Position numbers and translations under genes: made by a program. The notes under the pieces are model-generated. The model worked only from the letters and a program-made list of their open reading frames with translations, was not told the DNA's origin and made no database searches. From assembly GCA_034658555.1 (NCBI GenBank), contig JAYEFH010000195.1, forward strand, positions 3,345 to 35,128: DNA of 31,784 bases. The letters run 5' to 3'. Positions 11,355-31,642 of this stretch are shown piece after piece; position 1 is the first letter of the stretch, and every line of letters starts with the position of its first letter. Source of the stretch: Thermodesulfobacteriota bacterium (GTDB taxonomy: Bacteria; Desulfobacterota; Dissulfuribacteria; Dissulfuribacterales; UBA3076).

Positions 11355-11361
11355 TAATAAC

Positions 11362-13416: not shown

Positions 13417-13418
13417 AG

Positions 13419-13934: not shown

Positions 13935-14083
13935 TGTCTATGCCCTCCTTACATTTATCATAACCGTTCACAGGGATACGCCGAATGATCACTGCAAGCG
14001 AAGTGAAGCAATTTTTCCCTTTTTCAAAGAAAAAATCGGATCAAATGCAACGAGTTCATCCGACGCAACTAATGTATTATTTA

Positions 14084-14112
14084 TGATCGACACGATGGGG
14101 GGGAAAACTTTA
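14084..14112 (-). promoter_or_regulatory. Possible sigma28-like promoter for the che operon (over-long spacer)
   Basis: Minus strand TAAAGTTT-T-C7-ATCGT-GTCGATCA. The spacer after TAAA is 17 nt versus the canonical 15. Confidence 0.3.
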
Positions 14113-14189
14113 ATTTAATAGATGAGTTTTTTGCAAAACTGAAGATTCTATTCGAGGGCAAGAAGCGAGGAAAGTAAAGGCCGATGGTT

Positions 14190-14216
14190 TAAGTGTTTTT
14201 ACGTTGTAGTCGATAG
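14190..14216 (+). promoter_or_regulatory. Putative sigma28 promoter for fliS
   Basis: TAAG-N15-GTCGATAG, about 70 nt upstream of the fliS ATG. Confidence 0.55.
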
Positions 14217-14286
14217 TTTATTAAGGATGAGAGTATCATGAATTTGAATTTAAAAACTTTCAAGCAGAGAAATCAGAGGAATACTG

Positions 14287-14679
14287 ATGGCAAATATTAA
14301 CAGTGCATTGAGTCAATATAATCAGGTAGCTGGACAGGTCGGACTTGATGACGTCGATTCCCACCGGCTGGTTCAGTTACTGTTTGAAGGATCACTGAAC
14401 AGAATCGCTGAAGCCAAGGGACATATGCTCCGTGGCGAAATTGCCGAAAAGGGAACACGAATCAGCAAGGCGATATCAATCGTAGAAAGCCTCAGAACCA
14501 GTCTGGATAAAGGGGCCGGAGGCGAAATTGCTGAACACCTTGACAATCTTTACGAATATATATGCAAACGGCTTCTGGAGGCCAACATGACAAACAATCC
14601 GCAATTGCTTGATGAGGCAGCCGAGTTGCTCGGAGAGGTGAAAAGCGCCTGGGGTACTATTCCCGAAGAATTGAGGTAA
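14287..14679 (+). CDS. fliS: Flagellin export chaperone FliS
   Basis: SHRLVQLLFEG, ISKAISIVESLRTSLD..GGEIAEHLDNLYEY, RLLEAN, EVKSAW. GAGGA RBS. Confidence 0.95.
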   Translation: MANINSALSQYNQVAGQVGLDDVDSHRLVQLLFEGSLNRIAEAKGHMLRGEIAEKGTRISKAISIVESLRTSLDKGAGGEIAEHLDNLYEYICKRLLEANMTNNPQLLDEAAELLGEVKSAWGTIPEELR

Positions 14680-14806
14680 GCGTTAACAGGGTACCGTATC
14701 TGCTTTGTTGCCTGCCTGCCGGCAGGCAGGTCGGGCACTTGAAGTACAGGGAGTACGTTCTGCGTACCCGTACGCCTCGCATCTGCAACACCCTGTAAAC
14801 GCTTAC
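14676..14806. mobile_element. 131-bp MITE-like element with 17-bp terminal inverted repeats and an internal 20-bp palindrome
   Basis: GTAAGCGTTAACAGGGT versus ACCCTGTAAACGCTTAC (16/17 complementary). CCTGCCTGCCGGCAGGCAGG at 14711-14730. The left end supplies the fliS TAA. Confidence 0.75.
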
Positions 14807-14857
14807 AGTTCGGTGAGTTGCGGTAAAACGGGCGTTGTAATCCCGTGAACGGTTACG
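14790..14857 (+). repeat. Interspersed ~68-bp repeat, copy 2
   Basis: 64/68 identical to 3080-3147, same orientation. Overlaps the right end of the 14676-14806 element. Confidence 0.9.
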
Positions 14858-14884
14858 AAATTGGAAATTTGGCTTTCAAACACC

Positions 14885-15337
14885 TTACCACTGCGATGAT
14901 TTTCTCGTCGTACTCATTGCCTGGGCAATATCATCGCATTCTTTTTGTTCTTTCTTGTTCTGTTTGTATAACTCCTGGATGTGAAAACGCTTGATGACCT
15001 TATTGAGAACCTCCAGGCGTGTTTTGCTGGCAAGCCATAGATTCCTTTTACATTCCACATGCCGCCTGCTGTTTTCAAGCTGTTTTCCCTGTAAACAGAT
15101 AGTCTGGTTGAGGACCGCCAGAAAATTCTGGAATCCCAGGAGCTGGGATACCGCAATTCCGTTGGCTCCCTGCTCCTTGAGAAGGTTCGAATATTCCCCC
15201 TGGAAATCTTGTAGCTGCAGAAGACGGGCCTGGTGTTCCGCCATTTGGCGTTGAGAACCGCCTAATACAAGGGCTGCATCATTTTCCCGACTCTCGGCAA
15301 TTTTTGCTATACATTTTATTCTATTCGAACGGGTCAT
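14885..15337 (-). CDS. fliJ: Flagellar export protein FliJ
   Basis: About 150-aa coiled coil directly after fliI, with QLQDFQGEY, FQNFLAVLNQTI and EQKECDD. Alternative GTG at 15352. Confidence 0.88.
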   Translation of the reverse strand: MTRSNRIKCIAKIAESRENDAALVLGGSQRQMAEHQARLLQLQDFQGEYSNLLKEQGANGIAVSQLLGFQNFLAVLNQTICLQGKQLENSRRHVECKRNLWLASKTRLEVLNKVIKRFHIQELYKQNKKEQKECDDIAQAMSTTRKSSQW

Positions 15338-15372
15338 TACAGTACCTGTCACAGACTATTCACACAAACCAT

Positions 15373-16740
15373 CTAGGAAGGAGAGCTTTTCACGGTTTCA
15401 GTCAAACCCTGGATGCTTTCTTCCATCGACACCGGTTCGTGCATGTCCTGTTTGAGAAAATTCAGCAATTTGGGGTGAAATTCTATAGCTTCATCAACTT
15501 TGGGATCAGAACCCTTGTGATATGCTCCAACCGTTATGAGATCCTGGTTCTGCCGATAAACTGTATAAAGTTCTTTAAAACGCTGGGCCATTCGCCTATG
15601 TTCCGGATTCGCGATGTCGACCATCACTCGACTTACGGATGCCTCTATATCTATTGCCGGATAATGCCCTGTGTCTGCCAACTCCCGGGACAAGACAACG
15701 TGACCGTCAAGGATTGCCCTGGCGGCATCCACTATCGGATCGTTCTGGTCATCGCCTTCGGCCAAAACTGTATAAAAGGCCGTAATTGAACCATCGCCTT
15801 TGTCACTTTTCCCTGCACGCTCCACAAGGTGAGGCAATTTGGCAAAAACTGAAGGAGGATATCCTCTGGTGACAGGCGGTTCTCCTATGGCAAGACCGAT
15901 TTCGCGCTGGGCCTGGGCAAAACGGGTGAGCGAATCCATGAGCAGTAGGACCTGCAGGCCCTTGTCCCGGAAATACTCGGCTATGGAAGTGGCCATAAGT
16001 GCGCCGTGCAGCCGCATGAGAGGCGGATTATCTCCAGGTGCCGCCACCACGACGGCCCTAGACAGGCCCTCTTCACCCAGGTTGTTCCGGATGAATTCCG
16101 CAACCTCTCGGCTACGTTCGCCGACCAGGCCTACTACAATGACATCGGCCTTGGTATATTTGGTCATCATTCCCAGCAGCACGCTCTTGCCGACTCCACT
16201 GCCCGCAAACAGCCCCATTCGCTGACCACGCCCAATATTCAGCAGGGCATTTATGGCACGTACACCCACATCAAGGGGTTCACGAATAGGGGCGCGGGCC
16301 AGAGGATTCAATGTGCGACCGGTAAGTGGCATTTGAGCATCAAATTGAACAGGTCCCTTTCCATCAAGAGGACGGCCTGCGGCATCCACCACGCGTCCCA
16401 GCAGAGCGTCTCCCACCGGAGCTGAGCAGACCTGCCCGGTGGGAATTACCCTGGCATCGGGAGCCATTCCCTGAATATTGTCCGTCGGCATCAGAAAAAG
16501 TTTTTCTTCGGAGAACCCGACCACCTCCACTTCGATGCAGTGGTCGTCAGATGCAGACACCAAACAACGTTCACCTATAACCGCCCGGCACCCGACAGCC
16601 TCCAGGGTAAGACCCACCATCCGCGTAAGCGTACCCTCCACAACCAGTGAAGACGACGTCAAACGTTCTGAAAATTCAGAAAGGCGTCGACTCCAGATGC
16701 GGGTTCTGGGAAACTGAGGGATGACTGCCTGGGTTAACAT
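15373..16740 (-). CDS. fliI: Flagellar export ATPase FliI
   Basis: GQRMGLFAGSGVGKS (Walker A), LLLMDSLTRFAQAQREIGL (Walker B), GEPPVTRGYPPS, DGHVVLSRELA. Confidence 0.96.
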   Translation of the reverse strand: MLTQAVIPQFPRTRIWSRRLSEFSERLTSSSLVVEGTLTRMVGLTLEAVGCRAVIGERCLVSASDDHCIEVEVVGFSEEKLFLMPTDNIQGMAPDARVIPTGQVCSAPVGDALLGRVVDAAGRPLDGKGPVQFDAQMPLTGRTLNPLARAPIREPLDVGVRAINALLNIGRGQRMGLFAGSGVGKSVLLGMMTKYTKADVIVVGLVGERSREVAEFIRNNLGEEGLSRAVVVAAPGDNPPLMRLHGALMATSIAEYFRDKGLQVLLLMDSLTRFAQAQREIGLAIGEPPVTRGYPPSVFAKLPHLVERAGKSDKGDGSITAFYTVLAEGDDQNDPIVDAARAILDGHVVLSRELADTGHYPAIDIEASVSRVMVDIANPEHRRMAQRFKELYTVYRQNQDLITVGAYHKGSDPKVDEAIEFHPKLLNFLKQDMHEPVSMEESIQGLTETVKSSPS

Positions 16741-16824
16741 GGCTTGTCCTGATTACCGATGAGATGATGATAATTCCATCAGCTATTGTCGTGTCAACGA
16801 TACTCTGTCATTTCGAAGGAGTCT

Positions 16825-17601
16825 TCACGACGGAGAAATCCTGGACTTCTTCCTGCGGTCGAAATGACATTTCTCGTCTGACATGACACTAGTCATTTCA
16901 GTATCTTTAAAAAGTGAGGCCACCATCTTGTTGATACGTTTTTCCACACTTGCATCTATATGAGAGACATCGGTTACAACTTTACAATCACCCCTGTTCA
17001 TTTCGGTTGATTCGACAATCTCAACTTTTTGTTTATCGACGAAAAAACCTGGAGAATTGCTTACCATATCTGCATCATCAGGATGCAAATATAAGTGGAT
17101 GTGGCGGGAAGAGGACGGCAATGCCTCCAAAGCCTTCTGTACCACCTTCAGTATCAGGTCGGGATCCGTTCTTATTTCCCTGTAAATAACCTGTCTTGCA
17201 ATGGCCAGACTCAGAGTAACAAGCTCCTGGGCCATCTGTTGGTCGAGTACCTCAAAGGGCTTGTTAAGGGCTGCCATGAGTCGTTCCAGGCGTTTGGTCT
17301 GTTTCTGGATTTCAACCTGTCCTTCGGCTATGCCTGCCTTTTTGCCCTCCACGAGGCTATCGTGATATCCTTGGGCAAATCCTTCCTCATAGGCCTGTTT
17401 CGACAATTTATCATTGGACTCCTCATCTGAAATCCATTGACTACCTTGCCATTCTGTACCAGGATGCCCGTTTTTATCGATTAGCTGTGCGTCCCAGCGA
17501 TGAAAATCCGCCAGATTTTCACGGGGAATTATTCTCGCAACCCCGGATGACTCGCGACCGTTCTTGAGGGACCTAGATATATTCATCTTCACTACCGCCA
17601 C
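16825..17601 (-). CDS. fliH: Flagellar assembly protein FliH
   Basis: AYEEGFAQGY..GKKAG GxxxG repeats, IARQVIYREI, LHPDD, RGDC. Lies between fliG and fliI. Likely start 17586. Confidence 0.88.
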   Translation of the reverse strand: MAVVKMNISRSLKNGRESSGVARIIPRENLADFHRWDAQLIDKNGHPGTEWQGSQWISDEESNDKLSKQAYEEGFAQGYHDSLVEGKKAGIAEGQVEIQKQTKRLERLMAALNKPFEVLDQQMAQELVTLSLAIARQVIYREIRTDPDLILKVVQKALEALPSSSRHIHLYLHPDDADMVSNSPGFFVDKQKVEIVESTEMNRGDCKVVTDVSHIDASVEKRINKMVASLFKDTEMTSVMSDEKCHFDRRKKSRISPS

Positions 17602-18586
17602 TTCCCCGGGCTATCATGCCTTGTTCGATCAAGCTTCTGACGATTACCATAATTTCCTTTTGCATTTTCTCGACCTCGCTGACTTTTTCAGGTTTATGCG
17701 TCTCAAGATCATCTTTTAATATTTCGGCTGCATTCTCGGACATGTTTTTGAAAATCTTTTGCTTGACAGCTTCACTCGCCCCTTTTAAGGCCACAATCAG
17801 TATATCCGACTGGACCTCCCGAAGAAGGTTCTGCATGCCACGATCATCTATGTCTACAAGGTCCTCAAAGGAGAACATGTTGTCATCAATATCCTGACTG
17901 AGGTTGTCGTCTATTTCCTTTATTTGCCCAAGAATCTCTTCTCCCAACGAGGAAGACGCATAATTCAGGATTTCCGCAGCTGCCTTGATGCCTCCTACGC
18001 CGGATGATTTGAAACTTACGTTGGCGGAAAATTGTTTCTCAAGGATTTCATTCAGTTCACGGCGCACAGAAGGCTGAATTCCTTCAAGTGTGGCGACACG
18101 CATTATCACATCTGTGCGGATCTGATCAGGAAGGTTACTCAGGACCGCTGCGGCCTGGTCTCTACTCAGACTGGAAAGCGTAACGGCTATAACCTGAGGA
18201 TGCTCCCGGCCCATAACCTCGGCGATGGAACTGCCATCCATCCATTTGAGCATATCCAACCCCTTGCTGCCGGACCCGGAAAGAACGCTGTCAATGAAGC
18301 CCTCAGCCTTTTCTTCACCGAGGGCCTTGTAAAGGACATCTCGGATATATTGATCTGAACCAATACTTAATGCCGTCTTGTTTTCTATTTCATTAATAAA
18401 ATCGATCAGTACCGAGTCAATCTGGTCCTTGCTTACATCGGAAAGGGCAGCCATTGCAGTAACCAGTTTTTGGACTTCTTTGGGCTCCATGTATTTAAGA
18501 ATCTCTGCAGATTCGTTTTGACCAAGCGCCATCAGGAGGACAGCTCCACGCTCGATTCCGCCCATACTGACAGCGCTATTCAGCAT
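17573..18586 (-). CDS. fliG: Flagellar rotor/switch protein FliG
   Basis: AVLLMALG, EHPQ motif, GGIKAAAEILN, MFSFEDL, ALKGAS. Confidence 0.95.
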   Translation of the reverse strand: MLNSAVSMGGIERGAVLLMALGQNESAEILKYMEPKEVQKLVTAMAALSDVSKDQIDSVLIDFINEIENKTALSIGSDQYIRDVLYKALGEEKAEGFIDSVLSGSGSKGLDMLKWMDGSSIAEVMGREHPQVIAVTLSSLSRDQAAAVLSNLPDQIRTDVIMRVATLEGIQPSVRRELNEILEKQFSANVSFKSSGVGGIKAAAEILNYASSSLGEEILGQIKEIDDNLSQDIDDNMFSFEDLVDIDDRGMQNLLREVQSDILIVALKGASEAVKQKIFKNMSENAAEILKDDLETHKPEKVSEVEKMQKEIMVIVRSLIEQGMIARGSGGSEDEYI

Positions 18587-20186
18587 TGTTTCCTATCCAG
18601 CTTTTCACGACTTGTGCGACGCGGCCGGGATCCTCGGATGCAATTGATTTTGCAGCATTGAGCTTTTCTTCGTACCCGGAACCAGCTTTTGGAAGCATGG
18701 GAGTCTGCTCTTCTGAGCTGACAGGTATGGGTTCGTCCGGCAATTCTTCCGGTTGAGTTCCGGCCGCGCCCAGCGCGGCGAGGTTGCGTAGGATAGGACG
18801 AATTACCATGCCGATAATGATTAGCACCATCAGCCCCGCCAGGACCTGTTTGCCCAGGTTCCATACCCATGATTGTTTCCAGATAGGAGGCTCAGGTAAT
18901 GGTTCCGGGGGCGGCGGTACGGCAAAGGCCTCGTTGATTATGTTTATGGTGTCCCCTCTCTCGCTGTTGAAACCCACCGCCTCTTTGACAAGGCCGGTTA
19001 TGCGGTCCTTTTCCTTCTCTGTGAGTGGAGAAGAAACAACTTCGCCCGTGTCGTTTACAGTCTTCCGATAACCCACTACAACAGCTACTGAAATCTTTTT
19101 GATCACGCCGTTTGCAAAACGTGTGTGTTTGATGGTCTTGTTCGGTTCATAGTTAGTCGTAATGGATTGGCGGCTGGTCTGCGGCAAGGTTGAGCTTTTT
19201 CCTTCACCGGTGACGGCGATTTCCGGGGCAATTGCCTCGCCCGGCGGTTGATTGGAAAGAGCGCCGGGAATGCCAAGAGGTCCGGTACCCAGCTTTGTTT
19301 CCGTGGTACTCTGCTGACTGAGTATAGAGGATTGTTTTTCAGGAGAATATTGTTCCTGGGTCTGCTCTATTTCGGTAAAATCGATATCCGCAGTTACCCT
19401 GGCTTTTACTCCGTCCAAGCCGACAACCGGTGTCAGGATGTCCTTGATGCGCCTTTCAAGGCTCTTCTCCAGACGTCTGGTATATTCAAATTGGTTCGCA
19501 TTCAGGCCGGCTTCCCTGGATTCATCTCCCGAGGTCAATAGGTGCCCTTTCTGATCGATAATAGCAATCCTTTCCGGGTCCATATTAGGTATGCTGGCGG
19601 CAACCAGGTGTAAAATTGCAGCTACCTGACCAGCCTCCAGGTTACGTCCGTTGTAAAGGTCCACCAACACTGAAGCACTGGGCTTCTTGCGATTCCGGAT
19701 GAAGGCGGACTGTTTTGGAATGGCAAGGTGAATACGTACACTCCGTATGTCTTTCAGGGAGGAGACCGTCCGGGCAAGTTCTCCCTCCAGCGCCCGCTGA
19801 TATCGAGCTGTCTCCATGAACCGGCTGACACCCAGCCCCTGTTTCTTTTCCAGAAATTCGAAACCGATTCCAGCTCCCTTGGGCAGTCCCTCGGCAGCCA
19901 GCTTGAGACGTGCCTCATGGACCTTATCGGCTGGAATCATGATGGCCCCTGAAATCTGTTCCAAATCAAAAGGGATATCGGCTTTCTGAAGGGCCTCGAC
20001 TACCTGTGCTGAATCCCTGGCCTCCAGATGGCCGTAAAGCACACGATAGCCGGGTTTCTGTAACCACAGGAAAAACCATATACTCAGAACTATTATAGCA
20101 GACAGAACCACGACAAGAATGATTTGCTGAGTGATCGGCAAATTTATAAATCCATTCATGGACAAAGCGGTTCTACTTTCTGCCAC
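18576..20186 (-). CDS. fliF: MS-ring protein FliF
   Basis: N-terminal TM, LAAEGLP, GFEFLE, RYQRALEGELARTV, RKKPSASV, GFNSERGD, second TM, DPGRVAQVVKSWI. GTG start with AGGAG RBS. Confidence 0.96.
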   Translation of the reverse strand: MAESRTALSMNGFINLPITQQIILVVVLSAIIVLSIWFFLWLQKPGYRVLYGHLEARDSAQVVEALQKADIPFDLEQISGAIMIPADKVHEARLKLAAEGLPKGAGIGFEFLEKKQGLGVSRFMETARYQRALEGELARTVSSLKDIRSVRIHLAIPKQSAFIRNRKKPSASVLVDLYNGRNLEAGQVAAILHLVAASIPNMDPERIAIIDQKGHLLTSGDESREAGLNANQFEYTRRLEKSLERRIKDILTPVVGLDGVKARVTADIDFTEIEQTQEQYSPEKQSSILSQQSTTETKLGTGPLGIPGALSNQPPGEAIAPEIAVTGEGKSSTLPQTSRQSITTNYEPNKTIKHTRFANGVIKKISVAVVVGYRKTVNDTGEVVSSPLTEKEKDRITGLVKEAVGFNSERGDTINIINEAFAVPPPPEPLPEPPIWKQSWVWNLGKQVLAGLMVLIIIGMVIRPILRNLAALGAAGTQPEELPDEPIPVSSEEQTPMLPKAGSGYEEKLNAAKSIASEDPGRVAQVVKSWIGNNAE

Positions 20187-20209
20187 CTGCTATCTCCTGA
20201 AATTTTATT

Positions 20210-20242
20210 AGGTGAATAGGTTGAAGGTTGAAGACCTTCTAC
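20210..20242. repeat. Short AGGTTGA-type heptamer array with CCTTCTA counter-unit between fliE and fliF
   Basis: AGGTGAAT-AGGTTGA-AGGTTGA-AGA-CCTTCTA, related to the cheR array. Confidence 0.45.
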
Positions 20243-20566
20243 TTAAACTGGTATGCTCATAATATCCTGGTATGCTGATACCAGCTTGTTGCGTACTTTG
20301 GTGATAGCCTGAAAAGAGATATTCGCCTTCTGCAGAGCAATCATCACTTCTGAAAGGTCTATATCCGTGTTTCCGGCTTCGAACGTCTTAGCCAAATTCA
20401 TGGCATCCTTTTGTGTCTCATTAACCGAATCCACTGCATTGCTCAGGATTGAGGCAAAATCAACGCCTTCCTTTCCGCCGGTCTGATTGCTCGGTCCTCC
20501 CTTGCTCGCTTTTGCCATGGATTGAAGCTGTGCCAAAACTTTGGCTACGTCTACATTATTAGTCAT
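20243..20566 (-). CDS. fliE: Hook-basal body protein FliE
   Basis: DFASIL..AVDSVNETQ, DLSEVMIALQKANISFQAITKVRNKLVSAYQDIMSIPV. Confidence 0.95.
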   Translation of the reverse strand: MTNNVDVAKVLAQLQSMAKASKGGPSNQTGGKEGVDFASILSNAVDSVNETQKDAMNLAKTFEAGNTDIDLSEVMIALQKANISFQAITKVRNKLVSAYQDIMSIPV

Positions 20567-20641
20567 AATATTTTCCTGAATTCATTGCCTTATCATCGTC
20601 GGCAGTCAATCTTTTACAGTTTTTCTGTCTGTATTTTTAAT

Positions 20642-20657
20642 TGCATGTTCTGTGCCG
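20642..20657 (-). promoter_or_regulatory. Putative sigma54 promoter for fliEFGHIJ
   Basis: CGGCAC-AGAAC-ATGCA, with GG and GC separated by 10 nt. Confidence 0.65.
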
Positions 20658-20689
20658 CAAAGGTCTTCATGCCGGCATATTATTCAGCA

Positions 20690-22069
20690 TTACCCTGGAA
20701 TCGGGATGCCGACTTCTCGTATCCTGGCGAGCTTGTAACGAAGAGTTCGTTCACTGATACCCAGATGTTCGGCCGAAGTCTTCCGGTTTCCCATGAAACG
20801 TTTAAGTGTTTCCAATATCAAGTTCTGTTCCTGAGTTTTCAGGTCCCACAACGGGGCCTGCGGACCCGGGTGTCCTGATGTGCCGGGGGCAGGCTTGTCC
20901 GGCATTTGCGATATAGTCGGTTCAATGTACAGGGCATCTGCTCTGATAACTGCATCTGTATTCATGATTGTTGTCCTCTTGATCGCATTGTCCAGTTCCC
21001 GGACGTTGCCCGGCCAGGACTGTACCATAAGACATTTCCCGGCTTCAGCAGACAAATGCTGGATAGGCCGTCCCTTGACATAAGCCACGTTTGCAAGCAA
21101 CCAATCTGCAATGGGAATTATGTCTAGAGGACGTTCGCGCAATGGTGGTATGTGAATTGGAAATACATTCAGGCGGTAGAAAAGATCTTCCCGGAAATGA
21201 CCGGCCGCCACCTCTTCACGCAAATTCCTGTTGGACGTGGCAATGATCCGCACCTCAAGTGGGATAACTCTGTTGCCTCCTAACCGTTCGACTTCTCGTT
21301 CCTGCAGGACTCTAAGTATCTTTGCCTGCAGATTCGTATTCATTTCCGAAATTTCATCGAGGAGCAGTGTGCCGCCATTGGCCAATTCGAATTTGCCGGG
21401 ACCGTGTTTGTAAGCCCCTGTATAAGCACCCTTCTCATGGCCGAATAGAACGGCTTCCAGCATGGTATCAGGTATGGCGGAACAGTTAATGGCCACGAAA
21501 GGGCCACCTGCTCCATGTGAATTGCGATGGATGTAACGAGCGAGTACTTCCTTTCCCGTACCGCTTTCGCCGGTAATCAAAATGGTTGCGTCACTGGGGG
21601 CTGCCTTGTGGGCCAACGCCACAATTTCCTTCATCCGTGGATCAACGGCGATAAATTCCTTTTCGGCCACGTCTGATCGCAAGACGAATCGGCTCACCAT
21701 AGTTATGAGGACAGCAGGTTCGAAGGGTTTTACCAAGTAGTCTACGGCACCGTTGCGAATAGCCTCTACAGCCCTGGAGATAGTCCCATAGGCCGTCATC
21801 AGCAGTACAGGGAGCTTTGGACGCCGCTCCTTTATTCGTCTCAGCAGTTCATGACCGTCCATACCTTCCATCCGGACATCACTTATCACCATCCCGACCC
21901 TTTGATCTTCGAACTGATCCAGGGCCATGCGGCCATCTTCGGCTGCAATCACCGGATACCCCGCCATTTTCAGGGTATCGCATACTGCTTCCCGAAGAGA
22001 TGGATCATCTTCAACCACGAGTATGGTGGTTGAACCGTTATCTGAAGCAAGCCGTTTGAACGTTGTCAT
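20690..22069 (-). CDS. fleR: Sigma54-dependent response regulator FleR/FlrC type
   Basis: Receiver (LVVEDD, ISDVRM, LLMTAYG, YLVKPFE), AAA+ ([21 protein letters not shown]) and HTH (LGISERTLRYKL). Lies between fleS and fliE as in Pseudomonas. Confidence 0.88.
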   Translation of the reverse strand: MTTFKRLASDNGSTTILVVEDDPSLREAVCDTLKMAGYPVIAAEDGRMALDQFEDQRVGMVISDVRMEGMDGHELLRRIKERRPKLPVLLMTAYGTISRAVEAIRNGAVDYLVKPFEPAVLITMVSRFVLRSDVAEKEFIAVDPRMKEIVALAHKAAPSDATILITGESGTGKEVLARYIHRNSHGAGGPFVAINCSAIPDTMLEAVLFGHEKGAYTGAYKHGPGKFELANGGTLLLDEISEMNTNLQAKILRVLQEREVERLGGNRVIPLEVRIIATSNRNLREEVAAGHFREDLFYRLNVFPIHIPPLRERPLDIIPIADWLLANVAYVKGRPIQHLSAEAGKCLMVQSWPGNVRELDNAIKRTTIMNTDAVIRADALYIEPTISQMPDKPAPGTSGHPGPQAPLWDLKTQEQNLILETLKRFMGNRKTSAEHLGISERTLRYKLARIREVGIPIPG

Positions 22070-23327: not shown

Positions 23328-23340
23328 GCCGTTATTCCAT

Positions 23341-24426: not shown

Positions 24427-24478
24427 AGCGCTTTTCAGATAATAGATAACTCCGTGCTCTGGTATTCTTATCAATAGG

Positions 24479-24535
24479 ACGCTTACAGTTCGGTTGGTAC
24501 TGTAAAACAGGCGTTGTAATCCCGTGAACGGTTAC
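24479..24535 (+). repeat. Interspersed repeat, copy 3 (57 bp)
   Basis: ACGCTTACAGTTCGGT...GGCGTTGTAATCCCGTGAACGGTTAC, matching copies 1 and 2 apart from substitutions and one indel in the middle. Confidence 0.85.
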
Positions 24536-24546
24536 AACTTCTCAAA

Positions 24547-24562
24547 CGCAAAAAAGATGCCA
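24547..24562 (-). promoter_or_regulatory. Putative sigma54 promoter for fleQ-like/fleS/fleR
   Basis: TGGCAT-CTTTT-TTGCG, near-consensus. Predicted +1 is about 24536, at the edge of repeat copy 3. Confidence 0.7.
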
Positions 24563-24732
24563 GATGGAATGAAATCTCTTCCCATTGTTTTTCCGGACTT
24601 TCAGTAGAAAATCTGAAAAAATGCGCTTTAATGCCCACTGAAAACCGGGACAAAAGCTAAAACTGATTTTTATCGGATATCTTCCGTAAATATTCCAGCT
24701 ACTGTCACTCATCTCTTAACCGAATTGAGAAA

Positions 24733-24771
24733 ACGCCAAATTAATGGCGTAAGAAGTGTCAAAAAAAAGGC
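24733..24771. promoter_or_regulatory. Candidate upstream activator sites between divergent sigma54 promoters
   Basis: ACGCCA-AATTAA-TGGCGT inverted repeat (24733-24750) and GTCAAAAAAAAGGC (24758-24771), which resembles the FleQ box GTCaNTAAAtTGAC. Confidence 0.4.
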
Positions 24772-24853
24772 ATGCTCCATGGCGGTATTTAATATGGTTG
24801 CCAAAAAAACGGCAAAAGAGGGCAGTAAAGTGTTCAGTCTCCCTGATCCAGTC

Positions 24854-24869
24854 CGGCCTGGCTTTTGCA
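24854..24869 (+). promoter_or_regulatory. Putative sigma54 promoter for the fliK-like/flhB-like pair
   Basis: CGGCCT-GGCTT-TTGCA with correct GG-N10-GC spacing. Confidence 0.5.
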
Positions 24870-24937
24870 TTTTTATAGCTGTTTCCCTCCGCATCAGAAG
24901 CAAAATGATACAAATTTGTCCTCGTACCTGGAAGTTA

Positions 24938-26143
24938 ATGACATTAATTGGAAGAACCCCCATATGTGCAGACATAATTACTTCCAATGGTCCTTCTAGA
25001 AGGATACTGACACTTCGTATTGGTGAGATAGTGCAGGCCTTGGCGCTTACCAGCACCAGGCAGGGAAATGTGGCTCTCCGGATAGGCAACAGTGTTCTAA
25101 AAGCCAATACCTATATCCCAATCGAGAAAGGCCAAAGATTGAGCCTTGAGGTAATAAAGGTCAGCGACCGGATTACTCTGAAATTACAACAGGGTCAGAT
25201 AGAACCTGATCTTTTCATATCAACAATCATGAAGGCCATGCCTTACCAGCGAGGTATGTCTTCCCTGCTTGCGAACCTGACCCATATTGCTGACAAAGGT
25301 CACCCTTTTCTTCCTCCAGGACTGAGACAGGCGGCAGAAAAAATAATCAGGCAATTACCTCATTTCAGCAACTTGACAGGATCATTGGCTCTCAAGAGAG
25401 CGATAATGGCATCCGGCATCTTTCTCGAAGCGAGACTTGCCCGGCAATCAGGCGCCATGCAATCACGGGATCTTGCCGGTGATTTCAAGGCATCGTTACT
25501 GGTTCTCTACAATTTGGTTTCCAAAATTGTCGGCAAGGAGAGAAGACGACATAATAATCAATTTCCAGTAAGGGATACAACTACATCAAAATCATCGCAG
25601 CTCAAGCCTCCTTTGCGGTGGTCTTCTCCCAAGGCCCAGGCAAGCTCCATTGCCACGATTCAGGATCTGTCAGGAAAGGCTGTGTTTAAAGAACTCAAGG
25701 GCCAGATTGAATCCGTACTTGCGCGTATACAGCTTAATCAACTGGCTTCACTGGACCGCGAGGGAGATTGCAAGCATATCTGGCACCTGGAATTGCCGGT
25801 AAGAAACGCTGACCGGCCGGACATCTTTCATCTGCGTATAGAAAAGGAAGCCCATGGAACCAAAAATAGTGGAGCAGAAAACTGGACTGTATCATTAGCC
25901 TTTGATCTGGAAGGGTTTGGTCCTGTCCATGCCAGGGTCACCGTCACAGGCCTACACGTGTCCGCAACTTTCTGGTCCGCACGGGAAGCCACTGCTGATC
26001 TCTTCCGGGAACACTTTTCCACACTATCGGACAATTTGGAACAAACAGGACTTTCGGTCGGCAGCCTAATATGCCATATCGGTGCCCCGACGTGTACTGG
26101 TCGAACTCCTGACTCCCGGATATTCCTCCATGAGAAGGCATGA
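24938..26143 (+). CDS. FliK-like protein with C-terminal Flg_hook-type domain
   Basis: N-terminal LRIGEIVQA..ALRIG..L...PIEKGQRLSLEV. C-terminal WHLELPV..FHLRIE..WTVSLAFDLEGFGPVHARV..VSATFW..L...GL.V. ATG 24938 chosen because it lies downstream of the sigma54 motif; the ORF is open from 24725. Confidence 0.75.
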   Translation: MTLIGRTPICADIITSNGPSRRILTLRIGEIVQALALTSTRQGNVALRIGNSVLKANTYIPIEKGQRLSLEVIKVSDRITLKLQQGQIEPDLFISTIMKAMPYQRGMSSLLANLTHIADKGHPFLPPGLRQAAEKIIRQLPHFSNLTGSLALKRAIMASGIFLEARLARQSGAMQSRDLAGDFKASLLVLYNLVSKIVGKERRRHNNQFPVRDTTTSKSSQLKPPLRWSSPKAQASSIATIQDLSGKAVFKELKGQIESVLARIQLNQLASLDREGDCKHIWHLELPVRNADRPDIFHLRIEKEAHGTKNSGAENWTVSLAFDLEGFGPVHARVTVTGLHVSATFWSAREATADLFREHFSTLSDNLEQTGLSVGSLICHIGAPTCTGRTPDSRIFLHEKA

Positions 26144-26221
26144 AGAAACAGGTTTGTTGGCAATCTCTCATTAAATGATTATTGGGAGAAAGCAATCCGA
26201 CTGAAAGCGAGGACGGTACTG

Positions 26222-26503
26222 ATGGCAGCAAAGAGATTAAAGATGGAGACAGTGGCCCTAAAATACGAAGGAAAACGAGCTCCTCGCGTCACTGCCAAAG
26301 GGACAGGCGAAGTTGCAAAGAAGATTCTTGAACTGGCTGAGAAACACCGGATACCACTCTATCAAGATCCCAAACTGGTGGAATTGTTGTCCAATGTAGA
26401 TTTGGGGGATGAAATTCCTGTCTCATTATATGTTGCAGTGGCTGAAGTCATTGCCTTTGCCTACCGGATCTCGGGAAAAATACCTTATGATGGAATCGAA
26501 TAA
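26222..26503 (+). CDS. Stand-alone FlhB C-terminal-like protein (EscU/YscU/HrcU family)
   Basis: VALKY..KRAPRVTAKG.GEVAKKILELAEKHRIPL, L.L.DEIP..LYVAVAEVIAFAY. 93 aa with no TM domain. Confidence 0.9.
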   Translation: MAAKRLKMETVALKYEGKRAPRVTAKGTGEVAKKILELAEKHRIPLYQDPKLVELLSNVDLGDEIPVSLYVAVAEVIAFAYRISGKIPYDGIE

Positions 26504-26534
26504 TGACTATAGAAGCAGGATCATACGGCCGTTT

Positions 26535-27212
26535 CTAATATGGCCAGAAAGGACTCAAGAAAAAACGTGCCAGCCATCCGATAGCGTTGACATCAGCCGT
26601 AGCCCCTTTTCCACTGTATGAAATATCAGCATTGGCAACCTTTGTTGAAAGGACGCTATTGTCCGGCTGGATATCTTCCGGACGGACTATTCCTGAAATT
26701 CGCACAAAATCGCCTCCTTGATTAATAGTGATGTTTTTCTCGCCTTCAACAACTAGGTTCCTGTTTGGCAATATATCCACAACGATCACTGTAACACTGC
26801 CTGTGAGACTGTTGCTTTGACTGTTATCGCCCTTGCCGGAAAATTTGTGGCTTGAACCCAGCACCGAATTCAGGGCATAGCCGAACAACTTTACTGTCCT
26901 ACTAAAGAAGGTTGGGCTACCTACGCTTATGTCTGTCTCTTTCCTGGCATTGGTACTTGCTTCCTTTTTTGCATCAGTCTTTTCGGTCAGGATAATGGTA
27001 AGGATATCTCCAACCTTCCTGGCTCTCGAATCCTCAAAAAGGGAAATTGCGTAACTTGGTCTATATATCGAACCATCCGGGATAGGGACCGGTTGCGTGG
27101 GAACGGACTTTGCCGTGGTAACCGGGGCGTCTCCCTGGTGAATGGAGGCACAGCCTGCAAGCAGTAAAATTATCAGAAGAAAGCCGAATATCTTATCAGC
27201 TTTTTCTTTCAT
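26535..27212 (-). CDS. flgH: L-ring lipoprotein FlgH
   Basis: Lipobox LLAG-C, LFEDSRARKVGDILTI, GEKNITINQG, SGIVRPEDI, GWLARFF. Confidence 0.95.
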   Translation of the reverse strand: MKEKADKIFGFLLIILLLAGCASIHQGDAPVTTAKSVPTQPVPIPDGSIYRPSYAISLFEDSRARKVGDILTIILTEKTDAKKEASTNARKETDISVGSPTFFSRTVKLFGYALNSVLGSSHKFSGKGDNSQSNSLTGSVTVIVVDILPNRNLVVEGEKNITINQGGDFVRISGIVRPEDIQPDNSVLSTKVANADISYSGKGATADVNAIGWLARFFLSPFWPY

Positions 27213-27247
27213 ACAGGAAAGTCCTTCGAGTTGCTAATCAATCCGCA

Positions 27248-28036
27248 TCAGAGGTTATTGGAGAGATATTGAAGCATATTATCCGCTGTTTTAAGACACT
27301 TGGAATTCATTTCATAGGCACGTTCCGCCTCGATCATGTTGACCAATTCCTCGGAGGCGTTGACGTTGGAAGTCTCCAGGTAACCCTGTATCAGTCTTCC
27401 AAATCCCTCAGAGCCGGGAGGGGCAGTCTGGGATGTTCCACTGGCGGCACTCTCAAGGAACAGATTTCCTCCAATAGGCTGAAGACCGCCCGGGTTGACA
27501 AAATCGGCAATTTCCACGGCGCCTATCTCCACGGGCGTCGCTTGCCCGGCTTCCAGGACGGAAATCGTTCCGTCCTCGCCGATGGTCACACTCTGAATAT
27601 TGGGAGGAATAATGATGGAGGGCTCCAGCGGGTAACCGTTGGGAGTAACAATTTCTCCTTCAGAATTTAACTGAAACGCTCCGGCCCTGGTATACCCAAT
27701 GGTGCCATCAGGCATAAGAATTTGGAAAAAGCCCCTGCCATTGATGGCCATATCCAGTGAAGCCTCCTCGGTCTTAACAAGCGCACCTTGAATATGCATG
27801 GTGACAGTGGCTACCGGTCGAACACCTGTACCACACATCAAACCTGAAGGAAGCTGGTAGTCCTGAGAGGACTGAGCTCCGACCTGACGTAGGTTTTGAT
27901 ACAACAGATCTTCAAAAACAGCCCTTGAATGTTTAAAGCCATCCGTGTTGACATTGGCCAGGTTGTTGGCGATCGTCGAAATGCGAAAATGCTGTGCGTC
28001 CAGTCCGGTTTTGGCTATCCACAATGCCGCATGCAT
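27248..28036 (-). CDS. flgG: Distal rod protein FlgG
   Basis: ALWIAKTGLDAQ, ANNLANVNT.GFK, FEDLLYQ, LPSGL..GTGVRP, LETSNVN..EELVNMI. Confidence 0.96.
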   Translation of the reverse strand: MHAALWIAKTGLDAQHFRISTIANNLANVNTDGFKHSRAVFEDLLYQNLRQVGAQSSQDYQLPSGLMCGTGVRPVATVTMHIQGALVKTEEASLDMAINGRGFFQILMPDGTIGYTRAGAFQLNSEGEIVTPNGYPLEPSIIIPPNIQSVTIGEDGTISVLEAGQATPVEIGAVEIADFVNPGGLQPIGGNLFLESAASGTSQTAPPGSEGFGRLIQGYLETSNVNASEELVNMIEAERAYEMNSKCLKTADNMLQYLSNNL

Positions 28037-28054
28037 AATAAGTTTTCTCCTCGG

Positions 28055-28792
28055 TTAAATCCTCAAGAGTTCAGCGGTCTTGGCGTCGTTTTCCTGTGCT
28101 GTGTGCATGATCTTGATTTGCATTTCAAATTTGCGGGACAAATCTATCATGTTTACCAGGGCGCTTACCGCATTTACGTTGCTTGACTCCAGCGTTCCCG
28201 AAACAAGCTTCACTGAGGCATCGGCAGGGAGTAGTTCCTGTCTATCCGACCTCATTAGGCCATCTTCACCTTTCACCAGTTCAGTCAGGGGCATCTTGAC
28301 CAGCTTGATTCTGTCAAGCACTACCATGGAAGACGCTTCCTGCCCAAGCGGAAACACGGAAATAGTCCCGTCCCGGCCAATCTCCATTTTCTCGGCAGGT
28401 GGCACGGAAATGGGGCCGTTATCTCCGAGCACAAGCAATCCGGTGTTTGTAATAAGCAATCCATTATTCGAAATCTGGAGATTGCCTGACCTGGTATAGG
28501 CTTCGGTGCCATCGGTTGACTGGACGGCAATCCATCCGTTACCATCAATGGCTACATCCAGTTCACCACCCGTATTGATAAGATCACCAGGGGCAAAACT
28601 GACCCCCGGATGTTCCGCCATGGCGTAAACCCGGCTGGGATAACCGGGACCGAAAACCTGTACACTTCGAAATTGCACCAGGTCTTCACAGAAACCTGTG
28701 GTGCCGACATTGGCCAGATTATTGGCGTTGATCGCCTGAGCCTCCATAATTTCCCTGGCACCGGTCATTGCCACGTAGAGCATTCTGTCCAT
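28055..28792 (-). CDS. flgF: Proximal rod protein FlgF
   Basis: MDRMLYVAMTGA, ANNLAN..TTGF, TGGELDVAIDGNGW, AYTRSGNL, LESSNVNAV. Confidence 0.95.
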   Translation of the reverse strand: MDRMLYVAMTGAREIMEAQAINANNLANVGTTGFCEDLVQFRSVQVFGPGYPSRVYAMAEHPGVSFAPGDLINTGGELDVAIDGNGWIAVQSTDGTEAYTRSGNLQISNNGLLITNTGLLVLGDNGPISVPPAEKMEIGRDGTISVFPLGQEASSMVVLDRIKLVKMPLTELVKGEDGLMRSDRQELLPADASVKLVSGTLESSNVNAVSALVNMIDLSRKFEMQIKIMHTAQENDAKTAELLRI

Positions 28793-28818
28793 TTTTTCCT
28801 CTTCTCACATAAAATTGG

Positions 28819-30030
28819 CTACCGTATGTTTAACAATGTCTGCATTAGGGTATCAGCAGTGGAAATCACCTGGGCATTTGCCTGGAAATTGCGCTGAGCC
28901 GTAATCAGACTTACAAGCTCCCCGGTCAGGTCCACATTGGATGCCTCTATGGATCCTCCTTGAATCATCCCCAATCCTGCGGTCCCGGGGTCCCCGGTGG
29001 TGGGAGCGCCTGATGCCGGTCCTCCCGCCCATGTATTGTTGCCAAGCTGGATAAGTCCCCGTGGATTCAGGAAATCAGTCAACACAACCTGGCCTATGGT
29101 TTTTGTTTCACCGTTCGTATATCGGCCAAAGATGATCCCGTTTTCATCCACAATCACTCCGGCCATGTGACCGGTTGAATATCCATCCTGGGCCAATTCG
29201 TTGACGCCGAATTCGCCGTCGTACTGCGTCATCTGTAAAAAGTTCAGAGTGAGTGAAAGGGACGGCTCTGAGATGTCAATTGTAGAATTCTCTGCAGGGC
29301 TCTCAAGGTGGCCATTTTCATCAAAGCTCAGGCTTATGGGACTGCCCGTGGCCGCTTCATCACTGTCATCGATTAATAGATGCGTTGTCCACTCACCCTC
29401 GTCGTCTTTTCTGAAATAAAAGGACATGGCGTGCGTCATCCCCAGGGAATCATAAATGGTTATGGTGGTAATATTGTTCCATGTAGCAAGATCATTCTTA
29501 TCAAAGGGTGCAGTATGGGATATTGCGCCGGCGTCCAGATTGGCACCTATTGATACATTGCTTGTAGCCTTGGGGTCTAAATAGGCCTGAGATGTGCGCA
29601 TTGGCCCGAGTGCGTCCAGCACGTCGCCATGAGTAGTGGACGTTCTGCCGATGAGGCGCTCTCCCTGGCTGTTGACGATATAACCTGCCGAATCCAGCAT
29701 GAATGCGCCGGCCCTGCTGTACACTGTGCTGCCGCTGTGGTCCAGGAGCTGAAAAAAACCATTCCCGCTAATGGCCATGTCCAGGCTATTATTGGTGTAG
29801 ATGATGTTGCCCGGGGCAAATTGCTGGTCGACGGCGTTTATGCGTACACCACTACCGATCGCCCTGGAGGAAGAACCGAGTGATGAAGCAATGACATTGC
29901 CGAATTCAGTACGAGACCCCTTAAAGCCGGCAGTGTTGCTGTTTGCGATATTGTTACCGATGACGCTTATTTCCGCCGCAGATGCCTGTAGTCCGCTCTG
30001 ACCGATTCGCATAGGTGCTGCTGAACTCAT
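28819..30030 (-). CDS. flgE: Hook protein FlgE
   Basis: SGLQA....VIGNNIANSNTAGFK, LDMAISGNGFF, YSRAGAF, QDGY..G, IEASNVDLTGELV.LI.AQRNFQANAQVI. ATGA overlap with flgD. Confidence 0.95.
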   Translation of the reverse strand: MSSAAPMRIGQSGLQASAAEISVIGNNIANSNTAGFKGSRTEFGNVIASSLGSSSRAIGSGVRINAVDQQFAPGNIIYTNNSLDMAISGNGFFQLLDHSGSTVYSRAGAFMLDSAGYIVNSQGERLIGRTSTTHGDVLDALGPMRTSQAYLDPKATSNVSIGANLDAGAISHTAPFDKNDLATWNNITTITIYDSLGMTHAMSFYFRKDDEGEWTTHLLIDDSDEAATGSPISLSFDENGHLESPAENSTIDISEPSLSLTLNFLQMTQYDGEFGVNELAQDGYSTGHMAGVIVDENGIIFGRYTNGETKTIGQVVLTDFLNPRGLIQLGNNTWAGGPASGAPTTGDPGTAGLGMIQGGSIEASNVDLTGELVSLITAQRNFQANAQVISTADTLMQTLLNIR

Positions 30031-30725
30031 GATTCTGACTCCTTGGATCCAATTTCTCTGACTTGCAAGATATCCATCGGTCCCAGACCCGCCAAATTAA
30101 GCAGAATGCCCATGGTGGCATGATCCAATATTATGCTTTCCACCTTGGCTGAGATCAAAGTTTCCACAGGCTGGTTTTTGCCGTCAATTTCCATCTCGGC
30201 GATTATTTTGTAGGTCCCGGGAGTAACAGGGTTGCCTTGGTCATCCAACCCGTCCCACTCGAAACGGACCATGCCGCCTTCACTGGGGTCCAATTTTAAG
30301 CTTCTGATCATCTGACCGGACTGCTCAAGAATTTTCACTGTTACTGAAGTGGTCCCGGCCTGCGGTTCCACCGCGCCGCTTACGCTTTCCGCTTCTCCAA
30401 TCTCAATGGAATCAGCAGGAACAAGGACGGTATTTCCTGCCAGGTTGGCAGCCTGTAACGTTTGATTTGATGCTAAAACAGAGGCCAGCATATTGAAAGA
30501 TTCCTGCAGATCGTTGATTCCTCTGACAGTGCTGAATTGAGCAAGTTGCCCGAGAAATTCTCCGTTTTCTTTGGGTGATAGAGGATCCTGGTACTTGAGC
30601 TGAGTTACCATCAGCTTCAGAAACTGTTCCTGTCCCAGGTTGCCGTATCCTGCCTCAGAGCCGGATGGAATTCCCATGCCGGCTCCGGAGAATACTGAAT
30701 CACTGATATTGTTGACACCGTTCAT
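30027..30725 (-). CDS. flgD: Hook capping protein FlgD
   Basis: LGQEQFLKLMVTQLKYQDPLSP.ENGEFLGQLAQFS, F.WDGLD..G, PGTY. Confidence 0.95.
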   Translation of the reverse strand: MNGVNNISDSVFSGAGMGIPSGSEAGYGNLGQEQFLKLMVTQLKYQDPLSPKENGEFLGQLAQFSTVRGINDLQESFNMLASVLASNQTLQAANLAGNTVLVPADSIEIGEAESVSGAVEPQAGTTSVTVKILEQSGQMIRSLKLDPSEGGMVRFEWDGLDDQGNPVTPGTYKIIAEMEIDGKNQPVETLISAKVESIILDHATMGILLNLAGLGPMDILQVREIGSKESES

Positions 30726-30751
30726 TTCTGTCCTCCTTCAATAAGACCGGT

Positions 30752-31165
30752 TTACTGCCCAAGGGTCAGGGTCTTGAGAAGCATCTGCTTGCAAGTATTC
30801 ATCACCTCGACGTTTGTCTGGTAAGTGCGGGACGCCGAAATCAAATTAGCCATTTCCTCCACTACATTCACGTTTGGTCTGAAAATGTATCCAGCTTCAT
30901 TGGCCATTGGGTGGTCGGGAGCATATTCCATACGAAGAGGCGCGTTACTCTCTACAATTCCCATCACCTCCACTCCAACAGAAGAATCATCATCGCTCAA
31001 TGAATCCATTACTGCTGAAAATACCGGATGTTTTGCACGGTAGGTCCCTTCTGTATTACTGCTTATGCTTCCTTCATTAGCCAGATTGCTTGCAATAACA
31101 TTCAGTCGCACGGATTGTGCGCTCATTGCTGAACCGGCGATTTCAAAGACCTTAGAGAATGACAT
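30752..31165 (-). CDS. flgC: Proximal rod protein FlgC
   Basis: GSAMSAQSVRLNVIASNLAN, YAPDHPMAN..GY, PNVNVVEEMANLISASRTYQTNVE. Confidence 0.96.
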   Translation of the reverse strand: MSFSKVFEIAGSAMSAQSVRLNVIASNLANEGSISSNTEGTYRAKHPVFSAVMDSLSDDDSSVGVEVMGIVESNAPLRMEYAPDHPMANEAGYIFRPNVNVVEEMANLISASRTYQTNVEVMNTCKQMLLKTLTLGQ

Positions 31166-31168
31166 GGA

Positions 31169-31570
31169 CTACTCTCCTTTGATAGCGGTAAGTAATGTCC
31201 CTATACGGCTCTTTAAAAAGGCCAGGCCGGCCTGATATTGGAGCGCATTGTGGGCAAAGGCGGCTTTTTCCACCTGAGAGTCTACTGTGTTTTCGTCAAG
31301 TGATGGTTGAACCGGGTTCCGGTAGAGCAGATCGGGTAAATTCCCTTGGCTTTCCGGGCGAATATGGCCTTTATGAATAACGGCCATATGGAAAAGGTCG
31401 CCGGCCTCCTTTGCCCTGGAGAACGCTTCCTTGAAATCAATGTCACGCGCTTTATAATTCGGGGTATCGGCATTAGCGAGGTTTGACGCAATAATCTGAG
31501 TTCGAAGCGCTCTTAGCCTTAAGGCAATGGGATGAGTCCCAAACGCACTGTCTATTATCTTGTCTGGCAT
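31169..31570 (-). CDS. flgB: Proximal rod protein FlgB
   Basis: IASNLANADTPNYKARDIDF, LYRNPVQPSLDENTVD, N.LQYQA.L.FL. Confidence 0.96.
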   Translation of the reverse strand: MPDKIIDSAFGTHPIALRLRALRTQIIASNLANADTPNYKARDIDFKEAFSRAKEAGDLFHMAVIHKGHIRPESQGNLPDLLYRNPVQPSLDENTVDSQVEKAAFAHNALQYQAGLAFLKSRIGTLLTAIKGE

Positions 31571-31626
31571 AATGTCTCACCTCGGTTTTGAGTTTCGATA
31601 AAATAGGCAATTTGATGATATCTAAA

Positions 31627-31642
31627 AGCAATGTTTGTGCCA
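31627..31642 (-). promoter_or_regulatory. Sigma54 promoter for flgBCDEFGH
   Basis: TGGCAC-AAACA-TTGCT, an exact consensus match, 57 nt upstream of the flgB ATG. Confidence 0.85.

Follow-up and report, generated by a model that had tools for sequence, protein, structure and literature searches.

The transfer of a whole flagellum between lineages is considered hard, since some fifty genes must arrive together and fit the transcription and chemotaxis of the new host (PMC12363192). Few such transfers are documented, mostly within Pseudomonadota. The flagellum of the Enterobacteriaceae derives from an ancestral betaproteobacterium (Ferreira et al. 2021, PMC8042155); flagellar gene clusters of the Rhodobacterales have spread by horizontal operon transfer (PMC12363192); and Rhodobacter sphaeroides (Cereibacter) carries a complete, horizontally acquired flagellar set, fla1, alongside its endogenous one (Poggio et al. 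2007, J Bacteriol 189:3208, as cited in PMC12363192). Here we describe a motility region in the metagenome-assembled genome (MAG) G000, in which a flagellar regulon of the gammaproteobacterial type has probably entered a lineage of Thermodesulfobacteriota and so crossed phyla. The stretch analysed (the window) is 31.8 kb long and covers positions 3345-35128 of C195, the longest contig of the MAG; it was annotated from a listing of its open reading frames (ORFs) with Pfam and NCBIfam scans, and these give a motility region without interruption, in which flagellar genes flank a chemotaxis (che) operon. Whole-flagellum transfer is known already; the present case differs in that it is cross-phylum, that only the foreign set is found, that a retained native che operon is interleaved with it and that the master regulator is truncated.

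The closest described system is the polar flagellar regulon (FleQ/FlrA-FleSR/FlrBC-FliA) known from Pseudomonas, from Vibrio and from Gammaproteobacteria that oxidise sulfur. Polar flagella of this class are characterised by their gene order, DUF2802 and MotY, and G000 shares with this regulon the orders fleQ-fleS-fleR-fliEFGHIJ, flgBCDEFGH and fliLMNOP(Q)R-flhB-flhA-flhF-flhG-fliA, the position of fliD and fliS near fleQ, and the proteins MotY, DUF2802, FlgA, FlgM and FlgN, its closest counterparts being in Thiohalobacter, Thiotrichales, Chromatiales and Methylophaga. It differs in its Thermodesulfobacteriota host, a master regulator without the FleQ N-terminal domain, flgI-L lying apart from flgB-H, the inversion of the fleQ-fliJ block relative to fliD/fliS, the lack of a cheY-cheZ-cheA cluster after fliA, and a che operon, foreign to gammaproteobacteria, that is inserted between flaG and fliS.

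The imported fla1 set of R. sphaeroides is itself of the gammaproteobacterial type. That case resembles ours in that a complete set with its regulators was gained horizontally by a host with chemosensory genes of its own; it is unlike ours in that the endogenous set coexists there, whereas only the foreign set was found here, and in that classes were crossed rather than phyla. In the Enterobacteriaceae, too, a foreign flagellar system stands where an ancestral polar flagellum had been, there throughout the clade (PMC8042155); that transfer did not leave Pseudomonadota and has motor structures to support it, whereas the present one is documented by sequence only, in a few uncultured species. 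The Rhodobacterales likewise show a patchy distribution of flagellar cluster types among close relatives, explained by whole-cluster transfer (PMC12363192), but their clusters are often plasmid-borne and move within Alphaproteobacteria, whereas ours is chromosomal, occupies at least two regions and is interleaved with native genes.

We propose, with a probability of about 0.85, that this lineage acquired by horizontal transfer about 50 genes that make up a complete polar flagellar regulon of the gammaproteobacterial type, that its native flagellar set is no longer found in the assembled 75% of the genome, and that its che operon was kept. A horizontally acquired flagellum had been suspected in an earlier note on this DNA, and the tree, the topology test, the synteny and the native che block described below all support it. 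The MAG comprises 2.12 Mb in 404 contigs with 46% GC, and is 74.8% complete with 1.8% contamination by CheckM-type estimates. Because rpoB had no match in the MAG, RpoC (contig C43) was taken as the host marker; it shares 96% identity with proteins named Thermodesulfobacteriota bacterium and 83% with those of Dissulfurimicrobium sp. and Dissulfurirhabdus thermomarina. Judged by this marker, the host is a Dissulfuribacterales-like member of the Thermodesulfobacteriota (Desulfobacterota) and not a gammaproteobacterium, in line with the earlier note. The MAG also encodes, outside the window on C235 (5414-9514), a 1366-aa RpoC-like protein with Rpb1 domains 1, 2, 3 and 5 and a C-terminal TerB-C domain, besides the ordinary RpoC of C43. 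For comparison we used genomes of the same genus, among them G002, G004, G008, G010, G012 and G013, and the same-family genome G020, within sets of 21 genomes from the family, 40 relatives from the order, 69 genomes from the class and 400 genomes spread across Thermodesulfobacteriota.

The order fleQ-fleS-fleR-fliE-F-G-H-I-J runs on the minus strand from 24474 down to 14885. It comprises a sigma54 enhancer-binding protein (EBP, 23341-24474) that has neither an N-terminal receiver nor a FleQ domain, a FleS-like PAS histidine kinase (HK, 22038-23387), a FleR-like sigma54 response regulator (RR, 20690-22096) and the export and rotor module fliE-fliF-fliG-fliH-fliI-fliJ (14885-20566), all recognised by Pfam. 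In a collection of 5.8 billion proteins the top matches of FliF were three near-identical metagenome sequences (86-88%), followed by matches of 48-51% identity (524-569 bits), every named one of which belongs to Gammaproteobacteria or Pseudomonadota. A single FliF query found no loci in GTDB genomes, and each GTDB species, represented by one genome, was scanned instead with a profile from an alignment of distant matches; the best 80 loci are all gammaproteobacterial and include Methylophaga, Chromatiales, Thiotrichaceae, Thioalkalivibrio, Thiohalomonadaceae, Sedimenticola, Pseudomonas, Marinobacter and Neptuniibacter. The synteny of these loci is fliD-fliS-fleQ-fleS-fleR-fliE-F-G-H-I-J, and five of them (L039, L042, L043, L044 and L059) have the window's order from fleQ to fliJ. 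Maximum identities to the gamma loci exceed those to natives of the host phylum for FliI (73% vs 51%), FliG (56% vs 41%), FliF (49% vs 38%), FliE (58% vs 46%), FleR (61% vs 45%) and FleS (52% vs 31%). Taken in the same order, the three regulators are 53-58% (EBP), 40-52% (FleS) and 53-61% (FleR) identical to fleQ-fleS-fleR of the gamma loci.

The remaining flagellar genes of the window point the same way. Together fliD (766-2187; Pfam FliD_N/FliD_C) and flaG (2718-3071; Pfam FlaG), on the plus strand, form a foreign filament-cap module, with 30-36% (FliD) and up to 40% (FlaG) identity to the genes at the corresponding position of 50 named gamma loci, where fliD-fliS lie upstream of fleQ. FliS (14287-14679, plus strand, Pfam FliS) is 47-53% identical to its counterparts in gamma loci and 93% to that of the sister contig L037. 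The foreign rod, hook and L-ring module flgB-C-D-E-F-G-H (26535-31570, minus strand, NCBIfam and Pfam) has 42-68% identity, with the order kept, in Thiohalobacter sp. and Gammaproteobacteria HGW-1, and its FlgE aligns over the full length at 43-48% with five gamma genomes versus at most 39% over partial length in relatives of the host. These seven genes are contiguous, with flgI-J and flgK-L arranged otherwise on C359, while the gamma references have all eleven (flgB-L) in a row. Overall the foreign genes are 41-73% identical to those of sulfur-oxidising or Pseudomonas-type Gammaproteobacteria. A core of this type had been claimed before, and the closest sequences, the synteny and the tree bear it out, as the Pfam and NCBIfam scans do the two gene orders given for it. 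Of the five peptide motifs cited with it, four are present exactly and that of the methyl-accepting chemotaxis protein (MCP) is off by one residue.

Two genomes of the same genus retain what a native locus looks like. In G002 (C14) and G012 (C27), about 4 kb beyond cheX of the shared che operon, the order is HK-sigma54 RR-flgB-flgC-fliE-fliF-fliG-(fliH)-fliI, which is not the window's order and contains the flgB-flgC-fliE-fliF arrangement that the earlier note had expected of deltaproteobacteria. The proteins of these loci are only 25-51% identical to those of the window (FliF 30%, FliG 32-34%, FliI 50-51%), and the native HK and RR are 30% and 45% identical to FleS and FleR. A second native region on C3 of G012, flgD-flgE-motA-motB-motB-fliL-M-N-P-R-flhB-flhA-flhF, is 24-55% identical to the proteins of G000. 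No counterpart of the fliD/flaG module was found beside the che operon of the same-genus relatives.

The maximum likelihood tree of concatenated FliF and FliG (75 rows, 897 columns, LG+C20 with posterior mean site frequencies) separates the same groups. A branch with SH-aLRT support of 100 and a length of about 1 lies between 37 rows of the host's own phylum, including two same-genus natives and seven same-order genomes, and the 35 named gamma rows together with the window and two sister contigs. When the window clade was forced to group with the same-genus natives, the approximately unbiased (AU) test rejected the arrangement (delta log-likelihood 162, p-AU 1.9e-5). A flagellar tree, as had been advised, thus sets the flagellar genes apart from the host's own phylum: the gene phylogeny is at odds with the organism phylogeny, and the distribution among close relatives is patchy. 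By these sequence comparisons the gamma type of the set is established.

The rest of the set lies elsewhere in the genome. Contig C359 (26 kb) begins with glgA, motA, motB, the gene of a PilZ protein, a second FliK-like gene, flgI and flgJ, continues with flgL and flgK on the opposite strand, and then carries DUF2802, fliL, M, N, O, P, (Q), R, flhB, flhA, flhF, flhG, fliA, motY, flgA, flgM and flgN, the flhA-flhF-flhG-fliA cluster and MotY falling at 18162-23957. Its FlhA is 68-71% identical to those of Thiohalobacter, Thiotrichales, Sedimenticola, Chromatiales, Thiogranum and a scaly-snail endosymbiont, versus 45% to the native type. The genes fliM, fliN and motAB, whose origin had been singled out for checking, lie on C359 within the gamma-type set; the native region of G012 that contains their counterparts is the 24-55% identical one described above. 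A flagellin on contig C55 of G000 resembles the flagellins upstream of fliD in gamma loci. FliF, FlhA and FliM occur in one copy each, and Flagellin_N twice (flagellin and flgL); a search for a further flagellar set of native type, which the earlier note had also called for, found none in the assembled genome (about 75% complete). Taken together, the genes indicate that the imported system is a complete polar flagellum of the FleQ/FleSR/FliA, FlhF/FlhG and MotY type. As side observations, the PilZ-domain protein (4398-5015) directly follows motAB, and the second FliK-like gene (5116-6372) stands before flgI, so that the genome has two Flg_hook-domain proteins.

The che operon (3268-13934, minus strand) comprises 12 genes by Pfam, in the order cheW (13419-13934), MCP, cheR, cheD, HDOD, single-domain receiver, cheX, second cheD, cheB, cheA, cheY and cheX (3268-3744); the MCP has two CZB domains and no HAMP match. 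Searches by tblastn of window proteins on the contigs of relatives gave 80-89% identity for CheA in four same-genus genomes and 82% in one same-family genome, with 85-94% for CheB, 83-88% for CheW, 81-91% for HDOD, 82-90% for CheY and 82-89% for CheX. Over the whole operon the identity is 65-94%, with the gene order kept, in five relatives (G002, G004, G012 and G013 of the genus and G020 of the family). On these grounds the operon is inherited and native to the host, and its Desulfobacterota character had been recognised correctly; CheZ, said to be missing from the window, was not found anywhere in the assembled genome. The second cheD (7632-8141), between cheB and cheX, is preceded by REP-like repeats (7472-7638) and is an insertion into the native operon, since G004, G012 and G013 lack a gene there. 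A (GGTAGAA)n heptamer array (11262-11334) lies between the MCP and cheR genes, and in relatives no part of the operon is less conserved than the cheR region (66-71% identity). The operon is also retained in G004 (on its contig C55; 97% complete) and G013 (C30; 92% complete), in which no FliF or FlgE was found, and no FliI at E <= 1e-80; there it may serve another output, or flagella may have been lost recently.

Several observations weigh against horizontal acquisition from Gammaproteobacteria as we have set it out. The foreign genes have a GC content at third codon positions (GC3) of 0.51, where the background is 0.49 +/- 0.02, and their distance in relative synonymous codon usage (RSCU) is within the background range; they deviate no more than the native che genes do, and the comparison of codon usage between blocks that had been recommended gave no foreign signal. 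No integrase or transposase is among the annotated genes of the window and C359, and no tRNA turned up in the scan, the Rfam and tRNA scans of the window being empty. In the tree the window clade forms part of a basal polytomy on the gamma side, on a branch of 0.62, and is not nested in the sampled gammas; its placement as sister of all sampled gammas was not rejected (p-AU 0.74). The flaG/cheX junction lies inside a repeat, where independent Logan contigs break at 3177-3186 and give no bridge. Finally, only 75% of the genome is covered by the MAG, so that the unassembled DNA could hold a remnant of the native flagellar set or a che cluster of the gamma type.

The composition of the foreign genes implies either that they have resided long in the host or that the donor resembled it in composition, and neither a compositional anomaly nor mobility genes at the borders are required of old transfers. 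The replacement itself occurred within the genus, because G002 retains a native cluster at the che locus while its GlgA and CheA are 90% and 87% identical to those of G000; this makes a donor not yet sampled somewhat more likely than a very old event. On C195 the foreign DNA probably has its left border at a 147-aa C-terminal remnant of pyruvate kinase (2493-2936) that follows the native phosphoglucomutase gene (PGM), at a place where G008 has the full 484-aa gene. We also tried to read the borders from synteny around PGM, but its neighbours vary among relatives, leaving the remnant as the only marker.

The alternative that survives best keeps the transfer and changes its source, to an unsampled non-gammaproteobacterial lineage, possibly outside Pseudomonadota, that had a polar flagellum of the FleQ/FleSR/FlhFG/MotY type. 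A clade that does not nest within the 35 sampled gamma rows, its long branch, top identities of only about 50% for FliF and 70% for FlhA, and the host-like GC3, as expected of a donor with similar composition, would all fit. The AU test in which the own-phylum rows and the window are held together asks only whether the window nests inside the gamma rows and does not reject that arrangement (p = 0.74); as a test of native against foreign origin it is uninformative and was discarded for that purpose, serving instead as the limit on assigning the donor. The donor thus need not lie inside the sampled Gammaproteobacteria on the present tree. Since all named best matches of FliF and FlhA in the 5.8 billion proteins are from Gammaproteobacteria or Pseudomonadota, all of the best 80 GTDB loci are gammaproteobacterial, and the gene order, DUF2802 and MotY are those of gammaproteobacterial polar flagella, we consider a source outside the class unlikely.

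Vertical descent would make the gamma-like set an old second flagellar system, lost in all sampled relatives. It accords with the fully host-like codon usage, with nearest gamma proteins only 41-73% identical and with the basal place of the clade on the gamma side, but the distribution of the genes speaks strongly against it. The FliI type of the window is confined to G000 in the family and was not found in the scans of the 20 other genomes; the MotY_N domain occurs in G000 only, one of 69 genomes of the class, and was not found in the other 68. Across the 40 relatives from the order FliF stays at or below 35% identity, or 38% where the match is partial; it reaches at best 39% (327 bits) in the 400 genomes of the phylum, and in any form is present in only 3 of 17 other members of the genus. 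The flagellated relatives have a different set at the che locus, and very many independent losses would be needed, which makes this explanation very unlikely in comparison with acquisition from outside.

An artefact of assembly or binning, by which a flagellar contig of gammaproteobacterial origin became attached to, or grouped with, a genome of the Thermodesulfobacteriota, was considered because the MAG is fragmented and incomplete and because the native/foreign junctions coincide with repeats. Genes of native and of foreign type alternate on each of two contigs, as C195 carries, upstream of the window, a native PGM (93-95% identity in eight same-genus genomes) in addition to the che operon, and C359 starts with a native glycogen synthase gene, glgA (78-92% in twelve same-genus genomes). 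In the best Logan run (X1) the independent contigs have an even depth of 25-33 over both the native and the foreign parts, and one of 886 nt, built by a different assembler, spans 13830-14715 and bridges cheW and fliS. Runs X2 and X3 gave only short pieces, and the pieces listed for X4 include no bridge across a native/foreign junction. Two contigs of other metagenome assemblies (ERZ9811299 and ERZ23495601) hold the same EBP-HK-RR-fliE..J(-fliS) block, with 86% (FliF) and 94% (FliI) identity to the window. A chimera, which the earlier note had named as a possible refutation, is therefore unlikely, being contradicted by linkage, depth and the bridging contig; with codon usage equal to that of the host and contamination of 1.8%, an artefact of either kind is hardly credible.

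The repeats bear on this point as well. A 68-nt REP-like unit occurs at 3080-3147, at 14790-14857 (94%) and in part at 24502-24535, within elements at the flaG/cheX junction (3080-3210), between fliS and fliJ inside the foreign block (14676-14857) and upstream of the EBP gene (24479-24562). The family is found on 33-66 contigs of the MAG (66 for that of 3080-3210, 33 for that of 24479-24562) and in the same-genus genomes G010 and G013 at 88-97% identity, but in none of the 80 gamma loci; a genus-specific repeat thus lies within the foreign block. Host repeats inside this block had been noted before at two places, of which 24479 does belong to a genome-wide family and 20210, an array, does not. 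In a contig of run X4, from a cold-seep relative that is about 95% identical, position 14675 is joined to 14857 by 26 other letters with no REP element, and the sister contig L037 has no match to the element at 14676-14857. Because the fliS-fliJ spacer of the cold-seep relative is free of it, the element entered the foreign block after acquisition. The copy between fliS and fliJ is a datable host-repeat insertion. The REP copies at 3113, 14823 and 24502 were considered as the cause of the inverted fleQ-fliJ block and set aside, as they are direct repeats, which give no inversions.

That the che operon arrived with the flagellar genes as one motility island, as its place between foreign flagellar genes on both sides might suggest, has practically no chance of being right, since the operon is 65-94% identical and syntenic in G002 and G012, which have native flagella, and in G004 and G013, where none was found, whereas gamma loci have a CheA of only 36% identity and no counterpart of CheX, CheD or HDOD.

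For the acquisition of a foreign regulon we propose the following course. An uncultured Dissulfuribacterales-like lineage would have taken up about 50 genes of a gamma-type polar regulon by horizontal transfer: in the window fliD/flaG/fliS, the headless FleQ-like EBP, FleS, FleR, fliEFGHIJ, fliK and flgB-H; on C359 motAB, flgIJKL, fliL-R, flhBA, flhF, flhG, fliA, motY and flgAMN; and on C55 the flagellin. The inherited che operon was retained and now has foreign flagellar genes on both flanks. We infer expression and function of the set from sequence. The host sigma factor RpoN, encoded on C11, would work with the imported EBP, FleS/FleR and FliA in a four-tier sigma54/sigma28 cascade, which would find its sigma factor in place because RpoN is present and the native cluster of the relatives is itself headed by a sigma54 HK/RR pair. 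FlhF and FlhG would place the polar flagellum, and the stator ring would include MotY.

The master regulator is unusual in this scheme. The EBP consists of AAA+, lid and HTH_8 domains only, with about 34 residues before AAA+ and no FleQ N-terminal domain, and only 250 nt, holding the host REP element, lie upstream of its gene. The short form (343-346 aa) is kept at 95% identity in the two sister contigs of other metagenomes; conserved in three lineages, it is not a recent break.

Control of rotation would come from the native side, with CheA and CheY signalling, CheX acting as the phosphatase with no CheZ, and phosphorylated CheY (CheY-P) binding a motif on the imported FliM. The FliM N-terminus reads MATEDILSQEEIDSLL, with the canonical CheY-P-binding motif LSQEEIDSLL intact. 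In the native CheY the usual active-site residues (DD, D(57)-equivalent, T and K) all stand in canonical contexts. The only other CheA in the genome is a 1056-aa hybrid on C219, with a similarly built match on C31 of G013. Given the lack of CheZ and this hybrid as the sole other CheA, the native Che pathway with CheX is the only visible input to the foreign switch, and so may well control the foreign motor, in a genome of which 25% is missing.

The window also holds smaller features. Between fliD and flaG lies an unknown ORF (2295-2690, plus strand). Between the EBP gene and the flg module are, both on the plus strand, fliK (24725-26143, Pfam Flg_hook), for hook-length control, and a small ORF with the C-terminal domain of FlhB (26222-26503, Pfam Bac_export_2), whose product is 59-63% identical to proteins in three gamma loci.

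We consider the swap of a whole organelle between phyla clear, and not unprecedented. For metagenomics it counsels caution, in that flagellar type is no taxonomic cue and flagellar genes may mislead binning and contamination checks. Close relatives retain the ancestral arrangement, so that a comparison of before and after is possible. We further suggest, tentatively and at slightly less than even odds, that one genus of uncultured sulfur bacteria presents all three states of a replacement (a native flagellum by the che operon, none found with the operon kept, and a foreign flagellum around it), in which the native, phylogenetically distant CheY steers the foreign motor and the EBP has shed its input domain as an adaptation to the host. 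If true, this would be a natural experiment in which a machine of about 50 genes has been plugged anew into a foreign signalling and transcription network.

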